DNA from: Promethearchaeota archaeon
Lineage (GTDB): Archaea; Asgardarchaeota; Lokiarchaeia; Sigyniarchaeales; SOKP01
Reading direction: 5' to 3'
Assembly (NCBI GenBank): GCA_048938895.1
Contig: JBHLLU010000002.1
Span: 64,001-128,000 of the forward strand
Length of the DNA stretch: 64,000 nucleotides
The notes below the pieces were generated by a model. That model made no database searches and had not been told where the DNA came from. It saw only the letters and a program-made list of their open reading frames with translations. Positions within the stretch are counted from its first letter, which is position 1. Every line of letters starts with the position of its first letter. The translations under genes and the position numbers were made by a program. This document shows, piece by piece, positions 8,917 to 59,101 of this stretch.

Positions 8917-10403
8917 GGGTCATTTCTAAAGGGATGACGCGCATTTTCTGCATTATTTATTCCATCATCAACAGTTGGTAAACCTTCCATTGCTTTTCGT
9001 ATGGCATTTCGAGTTGCTTTATAATTGTTGATAAATACTCTTTTTCTAGCACTAGCACTAGGATGAACAAATACATTAGCAATGAGAACGATATCATCTG
9101 CCGCTTCTTTAGGAAGTATTCCATCCTCTACGCATTGTATAACTGCCTTGGCGATTGCTGCTTGAGCTGGTCCGTAGGTAAGACTTGCATGACGAAGTGA
9201 AGTAGGTCGTACAGTTGGGATCATAATTGTTGCTGGTTTTACCTGCATATTGGGTTCAAGAATGACTTGAAGTCCTTCACGCCCTTCTTCTGGATTGGTT
9301 AAAGCTTGGGCATACGCATTACCTACGGGGCCATTTTTATTTCCAATTAGAATATCTATGTGCGCAAGCTCAACTCGGTCACCTACTAGAGACTCTCCTA
9401 CTTTCAATTCAAAATCAGTAATCTTTTTAGGTGTAATTCCAACGGCGTAAAAACGACTAGTAATTGGTTTTTCACCTAAGTCAAATTCGAGTTCTGTTTT
9501 TTCAATTAATCCTAATTTTTCGAGTTCCACTCGTAATTCATCCTTTATTTCATAAGAAAGTGCATCACCTAACACTAATGGTTGACGTGTAGTACCTACG
9601 GGAAGTTTCATCATATTTAAACAAGATTTAACCCCTAAAGCCCCAGAATTTATTAAAAGCCTTGCTATTTTTTGTACTTTTTTTTGAAGTATTTGTGCTT
9701 CTGGTAATCGGTTATTCTGAACATGATCATAGATTTCAAGCCAAATTTTAGGAAAAACATTTGCCGAACCTAAAATACAACCAGCTGCACCTCCTGCTAA
9801 GGCACCTAACACATTTTCATCCCATCCAATCAATACAGAAATTTTATCACTAACTTTTTCTAATAATGCTGAAAAGTATTTATAGTCGCCACTGGAATCT
9901 TTAATTCCAACGATGTTATCAATGTCGACTAAGTCTTCAACAACAGTCCAGGGTAATTCTACGCCTGTACAAGCAGGGATATTATATAAAAGTATCGGGA
10001 TGTCTGTTTTCTCAGCTATTGTAAAATAGTGATCATATAATCCTTTTGCTTTAGGTTTTAAGTAATAAGGTGTAACAATTAGTACCGCATCTACCCCTAT
10101 ATCTGTTGCAGCGTTAGTAGCTTCTATCACCAACTTCGTACCAGTTTCACCTGTTCCTGCAATAACAGGAACTCTCCCATTAGTTTCATCAACCACAATC
10201 TCTGTTACTTTCAAACGCTCTTCAAATGTCATATTAACAAACTCACCTGTGGTTCCTACAGGAACAAGCCCAGTGACTCCTTGATCAATAAGGTGATTAA
10301 CTAAATTTCTTAAATTCTCTTCATTTATAGATTCATCACCTTTATTAAAAGGAGTTACTAAAGCAGGCATAACACCTTTAGGCCTAAAATCAAATGTACT
10401 CAT
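8913..10403 (-). CDS. DapA-family class I aldolase fused to formaldehyde-activating enzyme (Fae)
   Basis: N-terminal GTTGE, PYY, LYNIP, GIKDSSGD; C-terminal VGESLVG..AHIDILIG..GPVG, GPAQAAIAKAV, NYKAT..AIRKAM, HPF typical of Fae. Confidence 0.88.
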   Translation of the reverse strand: MSTFDFRPKGVMPALVTPFNKGDESINEENLRNLVNHLIDQGVTGLVPVGTTGEFVNMTFEERLKVTEIVVDETNGRVPVIAGTGETGTKLVIEATNAATDIGVDAVLIVTPYYLKPKAKGLYDHYFTIAEKTDIPILLYNIPACTGVELPWTVVEDLVDIDNIVGIKDSSGDYKYFSALLEKVSDKISVLIGWDENVLGALAGGAAGCILGSANVFPKIWLEIYDHVQNNRLPEAQILQKKVQKIARLLINSGALGVKSCLNMMKLPVGTTRQPLVLGDALSYEIKDELRVELEKLGLIEKTELEFDLGEKPITSRFYAVGITPKKITDFELKVGESLVGDRVELAHIDILIGNKNGPVGNAYAQALTNPEEGREGLQVILEPNMQVKPATIMIPTVRPTSLRHASLTYGPAQAAIAKAVIQCVEDGILPKEAADDIVLIANVFVHPSASARKRVFINNYKATRNAIRKAMEGLPTVDDGINNAENARHPFRNDP

Positions 10404-14971: not shown

Positions 14972-16780
14972 ATGAGAAAAGAAAGAGGTTTAGAACGGAG
15001 TATAGATAATCTGTTTATAATATCAATTGTTCTTAATATTCTTTTTTTTGTAGCTTTTCTCACAATAATTCCACCTATAAAAACTGAACCCTATTACCCG
15101 AGTTTTTATAACGTTGTAATTGGATATGGTAGTAATCCCGCAGCACTTGATCCTATTGATACATGGGACGCTCCTTCTCGTGTTTTCCAACACCAAGTTA
15201 CTCAATCTCTAGTTGAATATGATCTATCTACCCATCCAAATTATCAATTAAAACCAGTTCTATCTGAATATTGGATTTGGGAAAATATTACGAGAATTTC
15301 TTTTAAATTAAGAGATAATGTATACTTTCATGACAATACTCGAATGACTGCTGAAGATGTAAAATGGAATTTTGAAAGACTTATGTGGCTCTGCAATGCT
15401 ACGGGAACTCTTCCTGCAAATGACAGCTCTTGGGAGGCATTTCCTTCAAAATTATTCTTTTTTGAAAATGGAACTTATATTTTTAAGAGTTTTGAAGCAA
15501 ATGATACAATTGACCCACTAAGTTTCACGATAAATTTGAATGCTCCTTTTTCAGCATTGTTAGATCTTCTTACTTTTGGTGCAATCAACATTTTATCTCC
15601 TGCATCTACTCCATTTTATAGGTATTTAGATTTAGCAGAAGAAAAATTAATTGGTACCGGTCCATATGAATATGTGCATTTTAAAAGAGATAAAGAAGTG
15701 AGACTATCTAGGAATGATTTATATTGGGCATTTCCAGGATATTTTGAAACGGCAGTATTTCGAATTATTGAAGATGATACAGCACGGATGACTGCAGGTT
15801 TAGCTGGACAGTTTGATTATGTTAGTGGTGTACCAGAATCTTATATCGATACCTTTAATGGTGATCCTAATTTCCATGTGGAAGATGTCGGCGAAGATTT
15901 ATGTTATTTTTATTTAGAAATTTATTGTGGTGCAAGAGATACGACTGGAGACTTAATAGTCCCTGGTGATTATCAATATCAGAGAAATAATGCAACATTA
16001 AGAAGAGCAATAACGCTTGCTATTAACTATACTTACATCTATGATGTAATTCAGAACGGATTAGCTACCGAGGGGACAACAGCAGTTCCTCGAGCGATGC
16101 CAGGTCATAATGCATCAGTAGTTCAAGCAAGCTATTATAATTTTACCACTGGCATAAAAATGGCAAGAGATCTCATGAAAATATATAATCCTATTTGTGC
16201 TACATGGGACTCAAGCTACCCCGGAACTGATGAGGGTTTATGGACTAATGCAAATCTACTTGGAAGATCTTTTTATTTATATAGACATTTTGGAAGTATT
16301 ATAAATCAAAATCTGAATCTATTAATAGATTCTAATCTTAATTTAATCGGAATTCAAGCTTCAGAAATCCCAATAGATTGGGATCCAATCTACTTCCTAG
16401 AAGAGAAAAAACCGTGGGAAATGGATCTTAGATATATTGGTTGGTGTCCTGATTATTTAAATCCCTATAATATTATTGATCCCTTGTTTAATCTTGAATC
16501 TTATTCTTGTTTTTCAAGGATTAATGATACAAGCATTGGAGGGTTATCTTATATGATGAAAGCTGCGATTAAAGAGACGAATAGAACTAAACAGTTAGAA
16601 ATTTATGGAAATATTCAATCATATATTTTTGATGTCGATCGACCACTTACACCGGCAAGTCATGTTCACATTCCTCTTTGGGTTTACCATCTAGAGCAAA
16701 TCCATAAAAAATCATTGAAAGGAGTTCACTACAATGTAATGAAACTTTTAGAAGTTAAGAATTGGTATGAGGATGATTAA
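14972..16780 (+). CDS. ABC transporter substrate-binding protein, family 5
   Basis: LDP.D, FKLRDNVYFHD...TAEDVKW.FER, IGTGPY, LRRAI..AINY; N-terminal TM. Confidence 0.88.
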   Translation: MRKERGLERSIDNLFIISIVLNILFFVAFLTIIPPIKTEPYYPSFYNVVIGYGSNPAALDPIDTWDAPSRVFQHQVTQSLVEYDLSTHPNYQLKPVLSEYWIWENITRISFKLRDNVYFHDNTRMTAEDVKWNFERLMWLCNATGTLPANDSSWEAFPSKLFFFENGTYIFKSFEANDTIDPLSFTINLNAPFSALLDLLTFGAINILSPASTPFYRYLDLAEEKLIGTGPYEYVHFKRDKEVRLSRNDLYWAFPGYFETAVFRIIEDDTARMTAGLAGQFDYVSGVPESYIDTFNGDPNFHVEDVGEDLCYFYLEIYCGARDTTGDLIVPGDYQYQRNNATLRRAITLAINYTYIYDVIQNGLATEGTTAVPRAMPGHNASVVQASYYNFTTGIKMARDLMKIYNPICATWDSSYPGTDEGLWTNANLLGRSFYLYRHFGSIINQNLNLLIDSNLNLIGIQASEIPIDWDPIYFLEEKKPWEMDLRYIGWCPDYLNPYNIIDPLFNLESYSCFSRINDTSIGGLSYMMKAAIKETNRTKQLEIYGNIQSYIFDVDRPLTPASHVHIPLWVYHLEQIHKKSLKGVHYNVMKLLEVKNWYEDD

Positions 16781-53951: not shown

Positions 53952-55094
53952 TTAAAAAAGAGCAAATCCACAAGAAGGACAATTTTTTTTATCTCCTATC
54001 ATAATTTTGCTACAATTAGGGCAGATTTTCACCGTAGTTTTCCTTCTTTTTTTTACTTTTTCATCGGATTGCGATTTTTTGGCTTCCATCATTGCCCGAA
54101 TTTCTACTGCCATTGGATCTTCAGTACGTACCACTTTAGGTTCACCTTTTAATTCGATTTCATGCAAATATTCAATTATATTCCTTTTTTTCATTTTTGT
54201 TAATTCTGCAATAGTAGGTATCTTTCCAACTCGAACATCATTCAAGTAATCTTTATCAAGTTTTAGAATATTAAAACAATTATGACAACGAAATACATAC
54301 GGTATTCCTATATTGGAAGTTTCTGCCCATTGAGCCCAACATACTTTATGTGCCGGAGTATCACATGAAGGGCATATTACCATACCTTCATCATCTTTAT
54401 TAAAGCAAATAGAACATGTTGTTATCCCACTAGCTTCTGGAGGTTCATCAGCTAAATTTATGTAAAAAGGTTGGTTATCTGGAAGAATTCTAATTTTTTG
54501 TTTTACAAAAGAAGGTTCTGAAATATGTTTTTTTTCGGATAATTCTGCTAAAATAGGACTCAGATCTTTAACATTCTTTATCCCATATAATTCTCCGTTT
54601 GATAAATTTGCTATTTTCAACAATTTTTGTGCTTGATCTGAATACGGGCTTCCTATAAAGATAATGTCAATAAAAACGGGCATATCTCTAACTTTATTAA
54701 TTAACCCTTCGAGTGCAGGGAGATACTCATCGGGTACTTCATATGCACCATCGTCGACCAATATCAACAAGCGAAAAAATTTCTCAGAGATCTTTTTAAA
54801 TACCTCAATAATAAAGGTAATAGCGATAAATACACCACCTGCAATGTTAGCTCTAGTAAGATTTTTACCTAATGATTTTAAAGTCTTCAATATATATTCT
54901 GGGTCAAAAGTAAAATGATCTAGATAATTTGGTCCATCCTCTTGAAACCAAATCAGATTAAATCGATCAGAAGGATCGATTGATTGTTTATTCTGTAAAA
55001 ATTCTCCGATTATATTATATACTTGGCGCACTTTAGTAATTTCAGGAGTTAAAGCATAAAAAATAAGACAATCTTCACTTTTTGTAGATTCCAT
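53952..55094 (-). CDS. vWA-like domain + C4HC3 (PHD/RING-variant) finger + C-terminal zinc ribbon
   Basis: DRFNLIWF, RLLILVDDG, FIDIIFIG, IANLSNGELY; CSIC..CPSC..H..C..CHNC; CPNC..CPSCG. Confidence 0.75.
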   Translation of the reverse strand: MESTKSEDCLIFYALTPEITKVRQVYNIIGEFLQNKQSIDPSDRFNLIWFQEDGPNYLDHFTFDPEYILKTLKSLGKNLTRANIAGGVFIAITFIIEVFKKISEKFFRLLILVDDGAYEVPDEYLPALEGLINKVRDMPVFIDIIFIGSPYSDQAQKLLKIANLSNGELYGIKNVKDLSPILAELSEKKHISEPSFVKQKIRILPDNQPFYINLADEPPEASGITTCSICFNKDDEGMVICPSCDTPAHKVCWAQWAETSNIGIPYVFRCHNCFNILKLDKDYLNDVRVGKIPTIAELTKMKKRNIIEYLHEIELKGEPKVVRTEDPMAVEIRAMMEAKKSQSDEKVKKRRKTTVKICPNCSKIMIGDKKNCPSCGFALF

Positions 55095-55376
55095 GTTGTC
55101 AGACTATGATATTGAGTAAGATTTAACAAAATCTCTTTAATAAATGATTCGGGTGAGAATTAATAAGTTTAAGGTATAGTAAAATTTCAATCTTTAATTT
55201 AAGCGTTTTTTATAAGATTACCTTTATGAACTATACAACAAATTTTTTATAAAAATATACTTTCTCCAAATTAAGTTTAATATATTTTGAAGGATCTTTT
55301 AAAATTTTAAAAGCAATAAATCTTTTACGCTTTTGTATGTAATAAAATTCATTACAATCAATTACGAGATAAAAAT

Positions 55377-55637
55377 ATGCAAGTATATCGATTAAAAATA
55401 AACAGAAACATCTGTATTGGTTGCAACGATTGTGTAGTTAGTTGTCCAATAAATTTTACACAGCTTAAGGAAAAAGGGTATCTAACCGAAGAAAATGCCG
55501 TAGTTTTGGTTAAAAATGGAATGGCCTATGATATATATGTCGAGAATAGAAAAAGTCCAAATTGTGATGGATGTGGTGTTTGTGTAAAATTTTGTCCTGT
55601 TTCTGCAATTGAGTTACATTTAACCGAAGAAAAATGA
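55377..55637 (+). CDS. fwdG: 2x[4Fe-4S] ferredoxin, FwdG-like
   Basis: CIGCNDCVVSCP and CDGCGVCVKFCP; first gene of the fwd operon. Confidence 0.75.
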   Translation: MQVYRLKINRNICIGCNDCVVSCPINFTQLKEKGYLTEENAVVLVKNGMAYDIYVENRKSPNCDGCGVCVKFCPVSAIELHLTEEK

Positions 55638-55638
55638 G

Positions 55639-56370
55639 GTGAATAATATTTCGTTTCCAAAAATATCAAGATCAATTAGTCAAGATGTTGAACATGTGAA
55701 AGTGCAATTTCTTACTGAGAGTTTAGAATTAATTTTAGACCGTACTAAATGTGTGGGATGCGGAACATGCGCTCGAGTTTGTCCTAAGGATGCTATTTCT
55801 CGTGGACCAGTTGGCTCATCTCGTCGTTTTCCAACTTTAGAGGATATTATACCAGAAGTATACGATCCTAAAAAATGTGTTTTTTGTGGTACGTGTGTGT
55901 ATATGTGTCCTTTTTCGGCTCTAACTCTAAAAAAAGATGGGGAAGTTATAGAGCTTAATGATATTCCTATAGTTGCTCAAAAAGTTGTACCAAAGCTGGA
56001 ATTTGAAGCAAAAAAGGTATCAAGTTATAATGGGACTGAAAGGATTGCTAAACAATATTGTAATGGGGAGGTTCGTATTGTTGATGAAGAATGTCCTGGT
56101 GGATGTCAAACTTGTTATGAAGTTTGCCCTTCATTTGCCATTTCACTTCCAGAAAAATCAGATAAGGGTTGGGAAACAGTTCCAAATGTTGTAGTAGATG
56201 AGGAAAAATGTATTTTTTGCGGATCCTGTGACAATGGATGTCCCACTGGTGCTGTAAAACTAAAAATTACCGAAGTCAAAACTTCTGGAGAATCTAGTGA
56301 GATGTTTTGGGAACCTCTTTTAGAGAGGTTAAAAACTTTAAGATGGAGTGAAAAAAAGGAGGAGGATTAG
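55639..56370 (+). CDS. fwdF: Polyferredoxin (4 clusters), FwdF-like
   Basis: Four CxxCxxCxxxCP-type motifs; operon context. The start may be ATT 55648. Confidence 0.72.
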   Translation: MNNISFPKISRSISQDVEHVKVQFLTESLELILDRTKCVGCGTCARVCPKDAISRGPVGSSRRFPTLEDIIPEVYDPKKCVFCGTCVYMCPFSALTLKKDGEVIELNDIPIVAQKVVPKLEFEAKKVSSYNGTERIAKQYCNGEVRIVDEECPGGCQTCYEVCPSFAISLPEKSDKGWETVPNVVVDEEKCIFCGSCDNGCPTGAVKLKITEVKTSGESSEMFWEPLLERLKTLRWSEKKEED

Positions 56371-56375
56371 ATAAC

Positions 56376-56771
56376 ATGATTATAAATAATCTAGTTCTAA
56401 TTACTTGTCGAACAATCGATCAAGGTGTTGCTCTAGAGGGAGGAAAAGTCTCCAGGGAAGCTGTACGAGCAGCAGCAATTTGCGCTTTTGATAAGGAAGA
56501 TTTCAAGAAATTGGATTGCATTGTAGGAACTCCTGTAAAAGTTATCACTGATTATGGAGAAGTCCTCGTATATTCAACAATCTCAGAGGAAGGACCCCAT
56601 CCAGGGATTATATTTATACCTATGGGACCGTGGGCAAATCAAGTTGTTAATCCAGATTCACAATCCTGCGGTACACCAACTTATAAAGGAATGAAAGCAA
56701 CAGTAGAAGCAGTACCAAACGGTAAGGTTTTAGGTTCTGTAGAATTAATAAATACATTAAAGGAGGGTTAA
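56376..56771 (+). CDS. fwdD: Formylmethanofuran dehydrogenase subunit D
   Basis: LITCRTIDQG, G.IFIPMGPWAN.V, GTPTYKG. Confidence 0.92.
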   Translation: MIINNLVLITCRTIDQGVALEGGKVSREAVRAAAICAFDKEDFKKLDCIVGTPVKVITDYGEVLVYSTISEEGPHPGIIFIPMGPWANQVVNPDSQSCGTPTYKGMKATVEAVPNGKVLGSVELINTLKEG

Positions 56772-56772
56772 T

Positions 56773-58127
56773 ATGGTAGAAAAAATAAATACAACCACAG
56801 ATGTAGTCTGCCCGTTTAGATAGGATCTTATCGATTTATCGCGGTCTGTGGCACTCTCTGTGATGATTTAGAAGTTGATGTGGATATAAACGAAAATAAA
56901 GTAGTAGAAGTCAGAAATGGCTGTCAAATAGGCACAAAAAAATATTTTGCTTCAAACCCAAGTGATCATCGCTATGAAAAACCATTAATAAAAGATAATG
57001 GCTCTTTTAAGGAAGTTTCATGGGATGAAGCATTAGATAAAGCAGCTGATATTTTAATAAGTGCCAAAAGACCCTTGTTATATGGATTTTCAAGTACTGA
57101 ATGTGATGCACAAGGGAAGGGAGTTGAGTTAGCAGAAATATTAGGGGCTGTTTTAGATAATACTGCTTCCGTGTGTCATGGGCCTTCTTTATTAGCAATT
57201 CAAGATGTTGGAGCACCCACATCTACATTAGGTGAATATAAAAATCGAGCTGATCTTGTAGTATTCTGGGGTTGCAATCCTGTTCACGCCCATCCAAGAC
57301 ATTTGGGCAGATATAGTGAGTTTGTTAGAGGATATTTCAGAAAAGATGGAAGAAATGATAGATATATAATTGTAGTAGACCCAAGAAATACTCATACTGC
57401 TCAAATAGCAGATTTATTTGTTCAAGTTAACCCAAGTGAAGATTATGAATTATTAAACGCTATTAGGGCTATCCTTAGAGGTACTGAATTAGATGGGAAG
57501 GAAGTTTCTGGAGTACCAATGGAAGATGTTATTGCTTTAGTAAACAAATTGAAATCATGTAAATTTGGTGTGATTTTTTTTGGAATGGGTTTAACTCAAT
57601 CTCTCGCGCATCATAGAAATATTGATGCTGCAATTTGTTTGGTAAGAGAATTAAATGATTATACCAAATTTTTGCTAACCCCCATGAGAGGGCATTATAA
57701 TGTTGCTGGGGCAAACCAAGTTTTCTCATGGCAAACAGGTTATTCATATTCTATTGATTTTTCCAGAGGATATCCTCGGTATAATCCCGGAGAATTTTCT
57801 TCTGTTGAAGTATTAATAAGAGATGAAGTTGATGCTTCTCTAATAGTAGCATCTGATCCTGCTAGTAATTTTCCTGCTGCATCAGTTAAAAACATGTTTA
57901 AACATCCTTTAATATCCATTGAACCTCATCACACCCCAACTTCTGTGAATGCTGATGTTATATTACCTCCTGCTATTGCTGGAATTGAATGTGAAGGGAC
58001 AGCATATAGAATGGACAGTGTTCCACTCAGACTTCGAAAAGTCAAAGATGCTCCTGGTGAATGCTTAACTGATAAAGAGATATTAGAAAGGTTAATTGAA
58101 GTCGTAAAGCGTAAAAAGGGGGAATAA
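56773..58127 (+). CDS. fwdB: Formylmethanofuran dehydrogenase subunit B, split: join(56773..56817,56847..58127), 441 aa
   Basis: AGGAGG RBS + ATG 56773; exon 1 MVEKINTTTDVVCPF; exon 2 CGTLCDD...ASVCHGPS...WGCNPVHAHPRH...MRGHYNV; spliced length 1326 nt = 442 codons including stop. Confidence 0.9.
56818..56846 (+). other. 29-nt bulge-helix-bulge intron in fwdB mRNA
   Basis: AGATAGGATCTTATCGATTTATCGCGGTC; 4-bp central helix CCGU/GCGG with 3-nt bulges UUA and UCU; removal restores the frame and CPFCGTLC. Confidence 0.88.
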
Positions 58128-58982
58128 ATGATGTCAGAAGTGAAATTAAAATTAAAGAAAGAACCTAATTTTCCTTTAGAAGCAGACAACATTAGTCCTG
58201 ATCAATTTGCAGGCAAAACTATTGCCGAAATAAAAAAATTAGTTGTATATCACGGAAACGAAGAAAAAACATTAGGAGATTATTTTGATGTCTCTGGAAA
58301 AGCTGGAGATCTAGCAGAAATGAAAATTGAGATAGAAGGAGACCTTTCTAACATTAAACGTATTGGCGAAAAGATGAGTGGAGGTGAAATAGTTATTAAT
58401 GGTAATGTTGGTATGCATGTTGGGAACCATATGACTGGAGGAAAAATATTAGTTAATGGAAACGCTGATGATTGGGCAGGTGCTATGTTAAATGGTGGTG
58501 AATTAGAGATAACTGGAGATGCTGGACATTATGTTGGTGCTGCTTATAGAGGTTTTTGGAAAGGAATGCAAAACGGAATAATTAAAGTTCATGGGAAAGT
58601 AGGTAATGAAGCTTTAACGTGGGTTACTGGTTCAAAGCCAGGAGAAAGATTTCCGACATTAATATGTGGAAGCGCTGGAGCTTTTTTAGGGATTCATGGT
58701 CATGGTGGAACTATCATCGTTGATGGAGATTGTGATCGATGTGCAGGAGCGGACCAAGTCCGAGGTACTATTGTCGTAAAAGGTAAAGTCTCACGAATTC
58801 TTCCTTCATATAAGAAGATAGGTGAAGTAAAGGAAATAGAATTGATGAGTGGGGAAAAAATAACAGGAAAATTTATTGAGTACAGTGGAGATCACTCTGT
58901 GGAGAAAAATCACTCTAAGATAGATAAGAAAACCGGAGAAATCTCAAATAGCTCCAATGGGAGATTATTTGTAGCTTCCTAA
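58128..58982 (+). CDS. fwdC: Formylmethanofuran dehydrogenase subunit C
   Basis: PLEADNISPD, GxxMxGG beta-helix repeats, YVGAAYRG.WKGM. Confidence 0.93.
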   Translation: MMSEVKLKLKKEPNFPLEADNISPDQFAGKTIAEIKKLVVYHGNEEKTLGDYFDVSGKAGDLAEMKIEIEGDLSNIKRIGEKMSGGEIVINGNVGMHVGNHMTGGKILVNGNADDWAGAMLNGGELEITGDAGHYVGAAYRGFWKGMQNGIIKVHGKVGNEALTWVTGSKPGERFPTLICGSAGAFLGIHGHGGTIIVDGDCDRCAGADQVRGTIVVKGKVSRILPSYKKIGEVKEIELMSGEKITGKFIEYSGDHSVEKNHSKIDKKTGEISNSSNGRLFVAS

Positions 58983-59101
58983 AATTATTTAAATTAGTAT
59001 CTTCTTCTTAATAATTATAATTTATAAAAATACTAATTATATTTTAACAACTTTAGTATAATAATCAGAGTAATATAAAACAATTTTGAGATAATGATAT
59101 T

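Follow-up and report, generated by a model that had tools for sequence, protein, structure and literature searches.

A bulge-helix-bulge (BHB) intron in the pre-mRNA of crenarchaeal cbf5 was reportedly described by Watanabe in 2002. The available text of a later study (Yokobori 2009, PMC2738675) describes gain and loss of the cbf5 intron, a relaxed form of its motif, and a link to the hetero-oligomeric form of EndA, the tRNA-intron endonuclease. Besides tRNA and rRNA, the available text of PMC7714728 names only two mRNAs with such introns: crenarchaeal cbf5, the sole coding-region case up to 2020, and Haloferax volcanii HVO_1309, in which the BHB intron of the 5' untranslated region (5' UTR) was confirmed as an EndA substrate in vivo and in vitro. 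In the tRNA genes of Asgard archaea, non-canonical BHB introns are very abundant, according to the available texts of PMC11291895 and bioRxiv 10.64898/2026.10.13.758758. Here we describe a 64,000-nucleotide (nt) stretch of DNA from a member of the Promethearchaeota, a phylum of the kingdom Promethearchaeati, the Asgard group (the window, G000:C12:64001-128000, where G000 is the 4.65-Mb source genome). In it fwdB, the gene for formylmethanofuran dehydrogenase subunit B, is interrupted within its coding sequence by 29 nt (56818-56846) that are highly likely to be an archaeal BHB intron removed by tRNA-type splicing.

The locus resembles each of these systems in part. Like cbf5, as far as the available text on that gene goes, it has a host with hetero-oligomeric EndA and an intron that is found in some lineages and not in others. 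The cbf5 introns belong to Crenarchaeota and to a single gene, whereas the present host belongs to Promethearchaeota, fwdB encodes a metabolic enzyme, and at least nine genes with 11 sites are involved, most of the introns being about 30 nt long. Splicing of cbf5 has been experimentally shown, whereas here it is inferred from sequence. The likeness to HVO_1309 lies in an mRNA with a BHB intron as a substrate of EndA, which for fwdB is a prediction. By the available description, the HVO_1309 intron is confined to the untranslated leader, whereas the fwdB intron breaks the reading frame and splits a metal-cluster motif. The tRNA introns of Asgard archaea, so far as the available texts describe them, share with the fwdB intron a 4-bp helix with a pair of 3-nt bulges set across it, similar sizes, frequent gain and loss, and the enzymes, which for fwdB are predicted. 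In fwdB, however, the host RNA is an mRNA with no tRNA body to aid recognition, and codons restrict the exon half of the motif, with the result that pairing is adjusted through synonymous sites. A more distant likeness exists with XBP1 and HAC1, where, according to the available sources, a protein endonuclease cuts a very short intron (26 nt in XBP1) out of a folded mRNA, a tRNA ligase (RtcB or Trl1) seals the exons, and the frame changes. In contrast to what is proposed for fwdB, the endonuclease is IRE1 and two stem-loops take the place of the BHB. Splicing of XBP1 is a regulated stress switch, a role that for fwdB is speculation.

A full-text literature search turned up no earlier account of BHB introns in fwdB or in any Asgard protein-coding gene, in agreement with an earlier interpretation of this DNA from its letters alone (the sequence-only reading), whose author knew of no such case in an Asgard energy-metabolism gene. 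Subscription journals and supplements lay outside the scope of that search, so a prior description is possible; among them are the supplements of the tRNA-intron preprint, which may list non-tRNA inserts. By itself, fwdB is a further case of a known intron type, and the wider pattern across several genes is the more important result.

The interruption falls within the N-terminal Cys motif of FwdB. The frame that opens at ATG 56773 translates as MVEKINTTTDVVCPFR and then reaches a stop, and both this frame and its peptide are conserved in all orthologues, intron-bearing and intron-less. The second exon matches NCBIfam TIGR03129 (formylmethanofuran dehydrogenase subunit B) over profile positions 7-420 of 421 (E 6.2e-179, 594.9 bits). 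When 56818-56846 is removed in silico, 15 and 426 codons join into 441, which is the length of the uninterrupted orthologue P0001 of the relative G002, and the predicted exon junction restores VCPFCGTLCDD. The 415-amino-acid (aa) product that a mechanical listing of open reading frames (ORFs) returns from GTG 56880 is without the first three cysteines of the motif. Re-reading of the sequence thus agrees with the coordinates and gene layout given in the sequence-only reading. It also agrees with that reading's 441-aa ORF after removal of 29 nt, with a 16-aa peptide from the unspliced RNA (15 codons, R, stop), and with the expectation that such a gene would be miscalled as truncated.

In a BHB, EndA makes its cuts behind the second nucleotide of either bulge. 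For 56790-56868, ViennaRNA gives as minimum-energy fold the strict form of the motif, hBHBh', which is identical to the structure described in the sequence-only reading. In an explicit pair list the central helix has four of four pairs (CG, CG, GC, UG), and the runs adjoining the bulges are 4 bp on the outer side and 6 bp on the inner side. Three possible 29-nt deletions restore the protein motif, because TTT and TTC both encode Phe. Among the three, the deletion placed by the BHB rule is the only one with 4/4 central pairs (6 inner, 4 outer), and motif and reading frame are in exact register. A scan of the whole genome G000 for the strict motif (four central, at least three inner, and at least three outer pairs, no more than three G-U pairs, lengths 14-120) gave 71,909 matches in about 9.9e8 position-by-length trials, or about 7e-5 per given position and length. 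The unusual feature of the fwdB insert is therefore its geometry at precisely this place. Rfam covariance models run against 55000-59000 gave no matches at E values up to 1.

Inserts in fwdB are also found in relatives. The genus set comprises 54 genomes, 42 of which have a fwdB orthologue at E <= 1e-100. Seven of these 42 genes carry a 29-nt insert, and the remaining 35 read VCPFCGTLCDD unbroken. Site A, between Phe15 and Cys16, is occupied in G000, G048 and G064. Site B lies 7 nt downstream, after the first base of a Thr codon, and is occupied in G019, G022, G047 and G069. Two further site-B carriers, with 30 nt (L250 and L265), came from a wider scan of 47 loci, in 7 of which the motif pattern was unmatched; no fwdB insert was found in the order-level relatives L020-L026. 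The start codon, frame and peptide of exon 1 are intact in all seven carriers.

The sequences of these introns support conservation of the structure in relatives through compensatory change. The three site-A introns are near-identical, and their differences mostly keep or improve pairing. At 56810/56849, a synonymous TGT-to-TGC change turns G-U into G-C in both G048 and G064; in the intron hairpin, one A-U pair is G-U in G048 and one pair is broken in G064. Site-B introns share an AAA bulge and the central helix GCGG/CCGU (3/4 pairs in G047 and L265). Their hairpins are almost entirely different in sequence, yet they form similar folds, and RNAalifold on five site-B sequences showed 5 of 22 pairs maintained despite changes on both sides, the sequences that inform covariation at either site being few and related. 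Codon choice in the exons follows the same pattern. The proline codon is CCG in all three site-A carriers versus 1 of 30 intron-less orthologues, and the cysteine codon is TGC in all four site-B carriers versus 1/30. Since the exon wobble bases of the central helix must pair with the intron, the direction of this bias is the one predicted by the BHB model. The sequence-only reading had proposed a check of relatives for inserts of variable sequence with compensatory BHB pairing, and the seven carriers at two sites 7 nt apart bear it out. On the FwdB tree, the three site-A carriers fall in one well-supported clade of seven, together with three intron-less members and a single carrier of site B. 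As a whole, the carriers of site B occupy three or more separate places on the tree, and therefore repeated gains and/or losses are indicated.

The insert can be followed in DNA from other samples. Two 162-nt contigs of X2, another sample, span 56793-56954 with 8-9 differences and no gap, so they contain the insert. Over 56600-57010, a near-identical 447-nt DNA contig of run X7 shows 9 letter differences; exactly 29 letters are missing from it, which the alignment breaks up into seven small deletions between 56818 and 56852. As the X2 contigs carry the 29 nt and the X7 contig lacks them, the insert is real and is a discrete unit present or absent among close strains. Variants of it also occur in two other species-level genomes, G048 and G064. 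An assembly artefact had been named as the outcome that DNA reads could reveal, and the insert is present in the DNA.

Genes for the splicing enzymes are found in the source genome. Two tRNA-intron endonuclease genes (PF01974, at C83 and C123) score above the cut-off; the paralogues are 202 and 200 aa long, 30% identical, and each contains N- and C-terminal endonuclease domains. There is one RtcB (PF01139, one match, on C5). Although G000 is scored 98.7% complete, ARAGORN reported only 24 tRNAs in it, and introns interrupt 13 of these; many of its tRNA genes are probably too interrupted for ARAGORN to detect. The 13/24 interrupted tRNAs agree with the heavily interrupted Asgard tRNA genes described in the available text of PMC11291895.

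In the proposed mechanism, the exon CCGU of the fwdB pre-mRNA would pair with the intron GCGG. The resulting 4-bp helix would be flanked by two 3-nt bulges on opposite strands, with the exon-exon helix on one side and the intron hairpin on the other. A two-subunit EndA would cut after the second base of each bulge, and RtcB would ligate the exons and probably circularise the intron. The spliced mRNA would then encode the 441-aa FwdB with an intact Cys motif, CPFCGTLC, and the unspliced mRNA only a 16-residue peptide. The core of the sequence-only reading, a BHB intron in the fwdB mRNA that needs tRNA-type splicing, is supported by the geometry, the relatives, the covariation, the DNA polymorphism, the enzymes and the similar inserts in essential genes. 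We infer the cutting and joining, and EndA and RtcB as their agents. Rather than serving as a dedicated switch, the intron has most likely been kept as a tolerated element that is spliced constitutively; splicing as a gate on Fwd expression, which had also been suggested, is speculation.

Similar inserts occur in other genes. The sequence-only reading had advised a look for other frame-broken genes with BHB junctions, and further inserts were indeed found by comparing G000 at the protein level, without use of structure, with the closed one-contig relative G006 (2.4 of 3.34 Mb compared). The names of genes other than fwdB were assigned by eye from conserved motifs, with no family search. The 85-nt insert in rpoA1 follows GHFGHI-E, and the predicted cuts restore HIELARP. 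The three inserts in G006 (L135, L140 and L146) are in frame and contain stops. The gamma-carbonic-anhydrase-like insert is a weak case, with no inner helix beside the bulge. Controls (n=679) had the same insert length and were shifted by up to 25 nt. At the best protein-consistent placement, at least three of four central pairs were present in 14/14 instances versus 126/679 controls, and 4/4 central pairs with a flanking helix of at least 3 bp in 9/14 instances versus 1/679 controls. Altogether, this gives at least nine genes and 11 sites for two genomes together with their relatives. This count is a lower bound because the screens miss short exons, and fwdB itself was missed. The introns are 29-31 nt long at 8/11 sites, and at the others 37-40 nt (dnaG) and 35 or 85 nt (rpoA1 site R2b).

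Table 1. Features of the fwdB region (window positions) and inserts in other genes (genome:contig coordinates).
Feature	Position	Strand	Details
fwdD-like gene, directly upstream of fwdB	56376..56771	+	stop 56769-56771
AGGAGG, ribosome-binding-type motif	56761..56766	+	6 nt before fwdB ATG 56773; read from sequence
fwdB exon 1	56773..56817	+	15 codons, MVEKINTTTDVVCPF
Outer helix (h, exon-exon), 5' strands	56805-11, further out 56796-801	+	minimum-energy fold
Central 4-bp helix, 5' exon strand CCGU	56812..56815	+	pairs with 56841-56844
5' bulge UUA	56816..56818	+	predicted cut 56817/56818
Predicted BHB intron, 29 nt	56818..56846	+	unspliced frame: R, then stop
Intron hairpin (helix h')	56819..56840	+	pairs 56819-23/56836-40 and 56825-27/56833-35
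Central helix, 3' intron strand GCGG	56841..56844	+	
3' bulge UCU	56845..56847	+	predicted cut 56846/56847
fwdB exon 2	56847..58127	+	426 codons + stop, begins CGTLCDD
Outer helix, 3' strands	56848-54, 56857-62	+	minimum-energy fold
Truncated 415-aa ORF	56880..58127	+	GTG start; only product of mechanical ORF listing for fwdB
fwdC, directly downstream of fwdB	58128..58982	+	TIGR03122, E 9.6e-74
rpoA1 (RNA polymerase A')	G000:C159:~9090-9175	+	85 nt, central 4/4, inner 4
dnaG	G000:C144:~15764-15800	-	37 nt, central 4/4, inner 3
AIR-synthase/HypE-like	G000:C101:~4437		30 nt, in frame, two stops, central 3/4, inner 6
gamma-carbonic-anhydrase-like	G000:C123:~71048-71078		31 nt, central 3/4
cinA/MoaB-like, at GGLGPT	G006:C1 near 1410049 (L135)		30 nt, central 4/4, inner 3, outer >=7, strict hBHBh'
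uppS-like, within DG/NRRW (DGNRRW motif)	G006:C1 near 1505071 (L140)		30 nt, central 3/4, inner 7, outer 3
Unnamed gene	G006:C1 near 1621977 (L146)		30 nt, central 4/4, inner >=7

Other screens added little to this inventory. A strict-BHB screen that merged ORFs of G000 (at least 50 codons on each side) gave 800 merges with true cuts versus 731-773 with cuts shifted by 1-2 nt. It is uninformative on the number of introns because true and shifted cuts gave equivalent counts, and its matches are mostly gaps between neighbouring genes on the same strand. A blastn screen for indels between G006 and G000 was noisy and picked up neither fwdB nor dnaG; of the 16 candidates that it retained, most reflected differences between genes or at their ends. 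Alignment ruled out o329/C159:13563, o1144/C51 (where a tRNA precedes a gene), C47, C135 and C95 as inserts. A tblastn search of G000 ORFs against G006 for split matches returned none, because in-frame inserts were aligned through; parsing of gaps with stops was required.

In rpoA1, the first 300 aa had a match in 52/54 genomes of the genus, and nine genomes carry inserts, at three sites. Site R1 (30 nt) is occupied in G048 and G049, and site R2a (30 nt) in G017, G045, G069, G062 and G043. Site R2b, 5 nt past R2a, holds 85 nt in G000 and G022 and, judged by eye, about 35 nt in G062 and G043. A central pair at R2a is compensated among carriers: exon GGGC faces intron GCCU in G017, GGAC faces GUCU in G069 and G045, and a G-U intermediate exists in G062 and G043. 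One hairpin pair at this site is U-A, G-U or A-U among carriers. A class-level survey of rpoA1 covered 138 genomes, of which 132 matched. In other genera of the same family (G130, G145, G140, G092 and G097), the rpoA1 matches are 30 nt longer with stops, or split near residues 45 or 77-81, judged at the level of the matches. The 18 matched genomes outside the family had no stops inside the rpoA1 match; G077 had a frame break and G070 an in-frame insertion.

Two of these genomes, G062 (L220, G062:C62:7266-8227) and G043 (L221, G043:C27:29753-30714), apparently have two rpoA1 introns 5 nt apart. Judged by eye, the exon strand of the second intron's central helix spans the first splice junction, with 4/4 pairs after the first splice and 3/4 before it. 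This arrangement would suggest that the two adjacent introns would be spliced in order.

For dnaG, all 54 genomes of the genus gave a match, and an intron of 37-40 nt is present at the site GQ/TE (GAIFGQ/TEGLL) in 15/44 loci examined. Explicit pair lists give these introns a central GGCC/GGCU helix and AAA bulges. All 15 carriers use GGC or GGT for the neighbouring Gly codon, versus 3/29 non-carriers. For 13 dnaG introns RNAalifold proposed local hairpins in place of the BHB, so the dnaG case rests on the pair lists and the codon association. In G053, the dnaG match (G053:C297:3515-4663) is 30 nt over the expected length and contains one TAA, while the GQ/TE site is uninterrupted; this gene probably holds another intron site. 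The N-terminal region of dnaG in G006 contains about 102 masked bases (34 X; L133:18038-18139) just upstream of the intron site, which limits G006 as a reference there.

Two observations concern the introns of several genes. An A-GAUAG start and an AUC-G... end are common to the fwdB site-A and dnaG introns, a possible sign of common ancestry or of a preference of the enzyme that acts on both. The unspliced exon-1 frame reaches a stop no more than 4 codons past the 5' splice site at 10/11 sites, the exception being the 85-nt rpoA1 intron with 11 codons. For instance, the frame runs through R to a stop in fwdB and dnaG, through C at rpoA1 R2a, and through I in both the uppS-like and the unnamed gene. 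These early stops may limit translation of unspliced mRNA, or they may be an effect of A+T richness and of case finding among in-frame inserts.

The BHB-shaped insert in fwdB, together with similar short inserts in other genes including RNA polymerase, makes it very probable that some mRNAs are spliced in these archaea. A broader statement seems probable. Protein genes of this family, among them rpoA1, dnaG, the uppS-like gene and fwdB, would carry a population of mostly ~30-nt BHB mini-introns that are gained and lost between species and constrain their exons. Splicing of mRNA by EndA and RtcB would then be routine and general in these close relatives of eukaryotes, and many genes would be mis-annotated as truncated or broken.

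Several points weigh against the splicing of fwdB and of the other genes as proposed here. The 20 listed sequencing runs include no RNA run that holds this DNA, so the evidence for splicing is that of the genomic sequence. The fold energy of the fwdB motif is unremarkable alone (-19.9 kcal/mol, z -1.19; 23/200 shuffles fold as well), and its outer helix contains G-U pairs. The site-B introns have no adjacent outer helix and thus show a relaxed motif. Several introns of other genes are also relaxed, with 3/4 central pairs or no adjacent outer helix, and acceptance of such motifs in mRNA by the EndA of this lineage is a prediction. The genomes are kin, and the counts of carriers and codons are therefore not independent events.

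Among the alternatives, the one that survives best is still unlikely. It holds that another, unknown endonuclease and ligase remove the inserts, or that they are footprints of a small mobile DNA element with an incidental BHB-like fold. The relaxed introns would suit it, as would the clustering of sizes at 29-31 nt and the patchy distribution on the FwdB tree, which is as expected for gain and loss. However, the fwdB intron sequence has no second copy in G000, and target-site duplications are absent. Furthermore, exon bases take part in the pairing, and covariation preserves it; this speaks for selection on the RNA structure that EndA recognises.

An inactivating insertion is less probable again. 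The 29 nt would never be removed, and fwdB would be a pseudogene or would yield an N-terminally truncated protein from GTG 56880. This fits the mechanical ORF listing, which gives only the 415-aa ORF, and the lack of RNA among the listed runs, and a second, distant FwdB-like gene on C102 (34% identical) could make the split copy dispensable. However, exon 1, its start codon and the ribosome-binding motif are intact in 7/7 carriers, and exon 2 is free of stops and shares 84-95% identity with intact orthologues. Different species retain inserts of a single size at the two sites, their pairing is compensated, and the exon wobble bases covary with the intron. Inserts that conform to the rule also split rpoA1 and dnaG. 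Both genes are essential and occur once per genome in nearly all genomes searched, and as essential genes they cannot be pseudogenes.

A ribosome that skips the insert, by programmed frameshifting or by translational bypass of the T4 gene 60 type, is slightly more improbable than inactivation. A stop codon and a hairpin in the gap are features of known bypass sites. In fwdB a stop lies almost directly after the 5' boundary and the gap contains a hairpin, and at site A the frames share roughly one codon of overlap. Yet 56812-56823 contains no slippery heptamer, and the take-off triplet differs from the landing triplet at both sites (UUU vs GUC at site A, GGA vs GUA at site B). The exon-1 frame of site-B carriers reaches its stop before the frame of exon 2 has opened, which leaves no single frameshift able to join the exons. 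A frameshift at site A would add about 10 residues into the Cys motif, and neither frameshifting nor bypass explains the 85-nt rpoA1 insert or the exact geometry of 4 bp and 3-nt bulges. The weakest alternative, an assembly or binning artefact, has a negligible chance: G000, assembled in metagenome fashion, consists of 174 contigs and has 7.5% contamination, but the insert is also in the X2 contigs and, with point differences, in two other species-level genomes, and the closed one-contig relative G006 has the same kind of introns in other genes.

If tRNA-type splicing of these mRNAs is the correct explanation, the consequences reach beyond fwdB. The BHB mechanism appears to interrupt a key enzyme of a C1 pathway of the Wood-Ljungdahl/methanogenesis type and, by the wider search, also RNA polymerase, primase and other genes in many species of one Asgard family. 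Gene calling would need to take such introns into account; if it does not, fwdB, rpoA1 and dnaG will pass for truncated, split or missing genes, with distorted metabolic reconstructions as a result. These archaea would offer a natural system in which to follow the spread of enzyme-based splicing from tRNA to mRNA. They would also provide a data point on interrupted protein genes near the origin of eukaryotes, with a mechanism that is of the tRNA type and not spliceosomal. In addition, RNA structure would be seen to constrain synonymous sites.

The fwdD-like ORF upstream of fwdB matches NF042908 (FwdD) with E 1.2e-30 and 106 bits, which is below the curated cut-off of 175. The arrangement of AGGAGG and start codon in front of fwdB is common to most orthologues.

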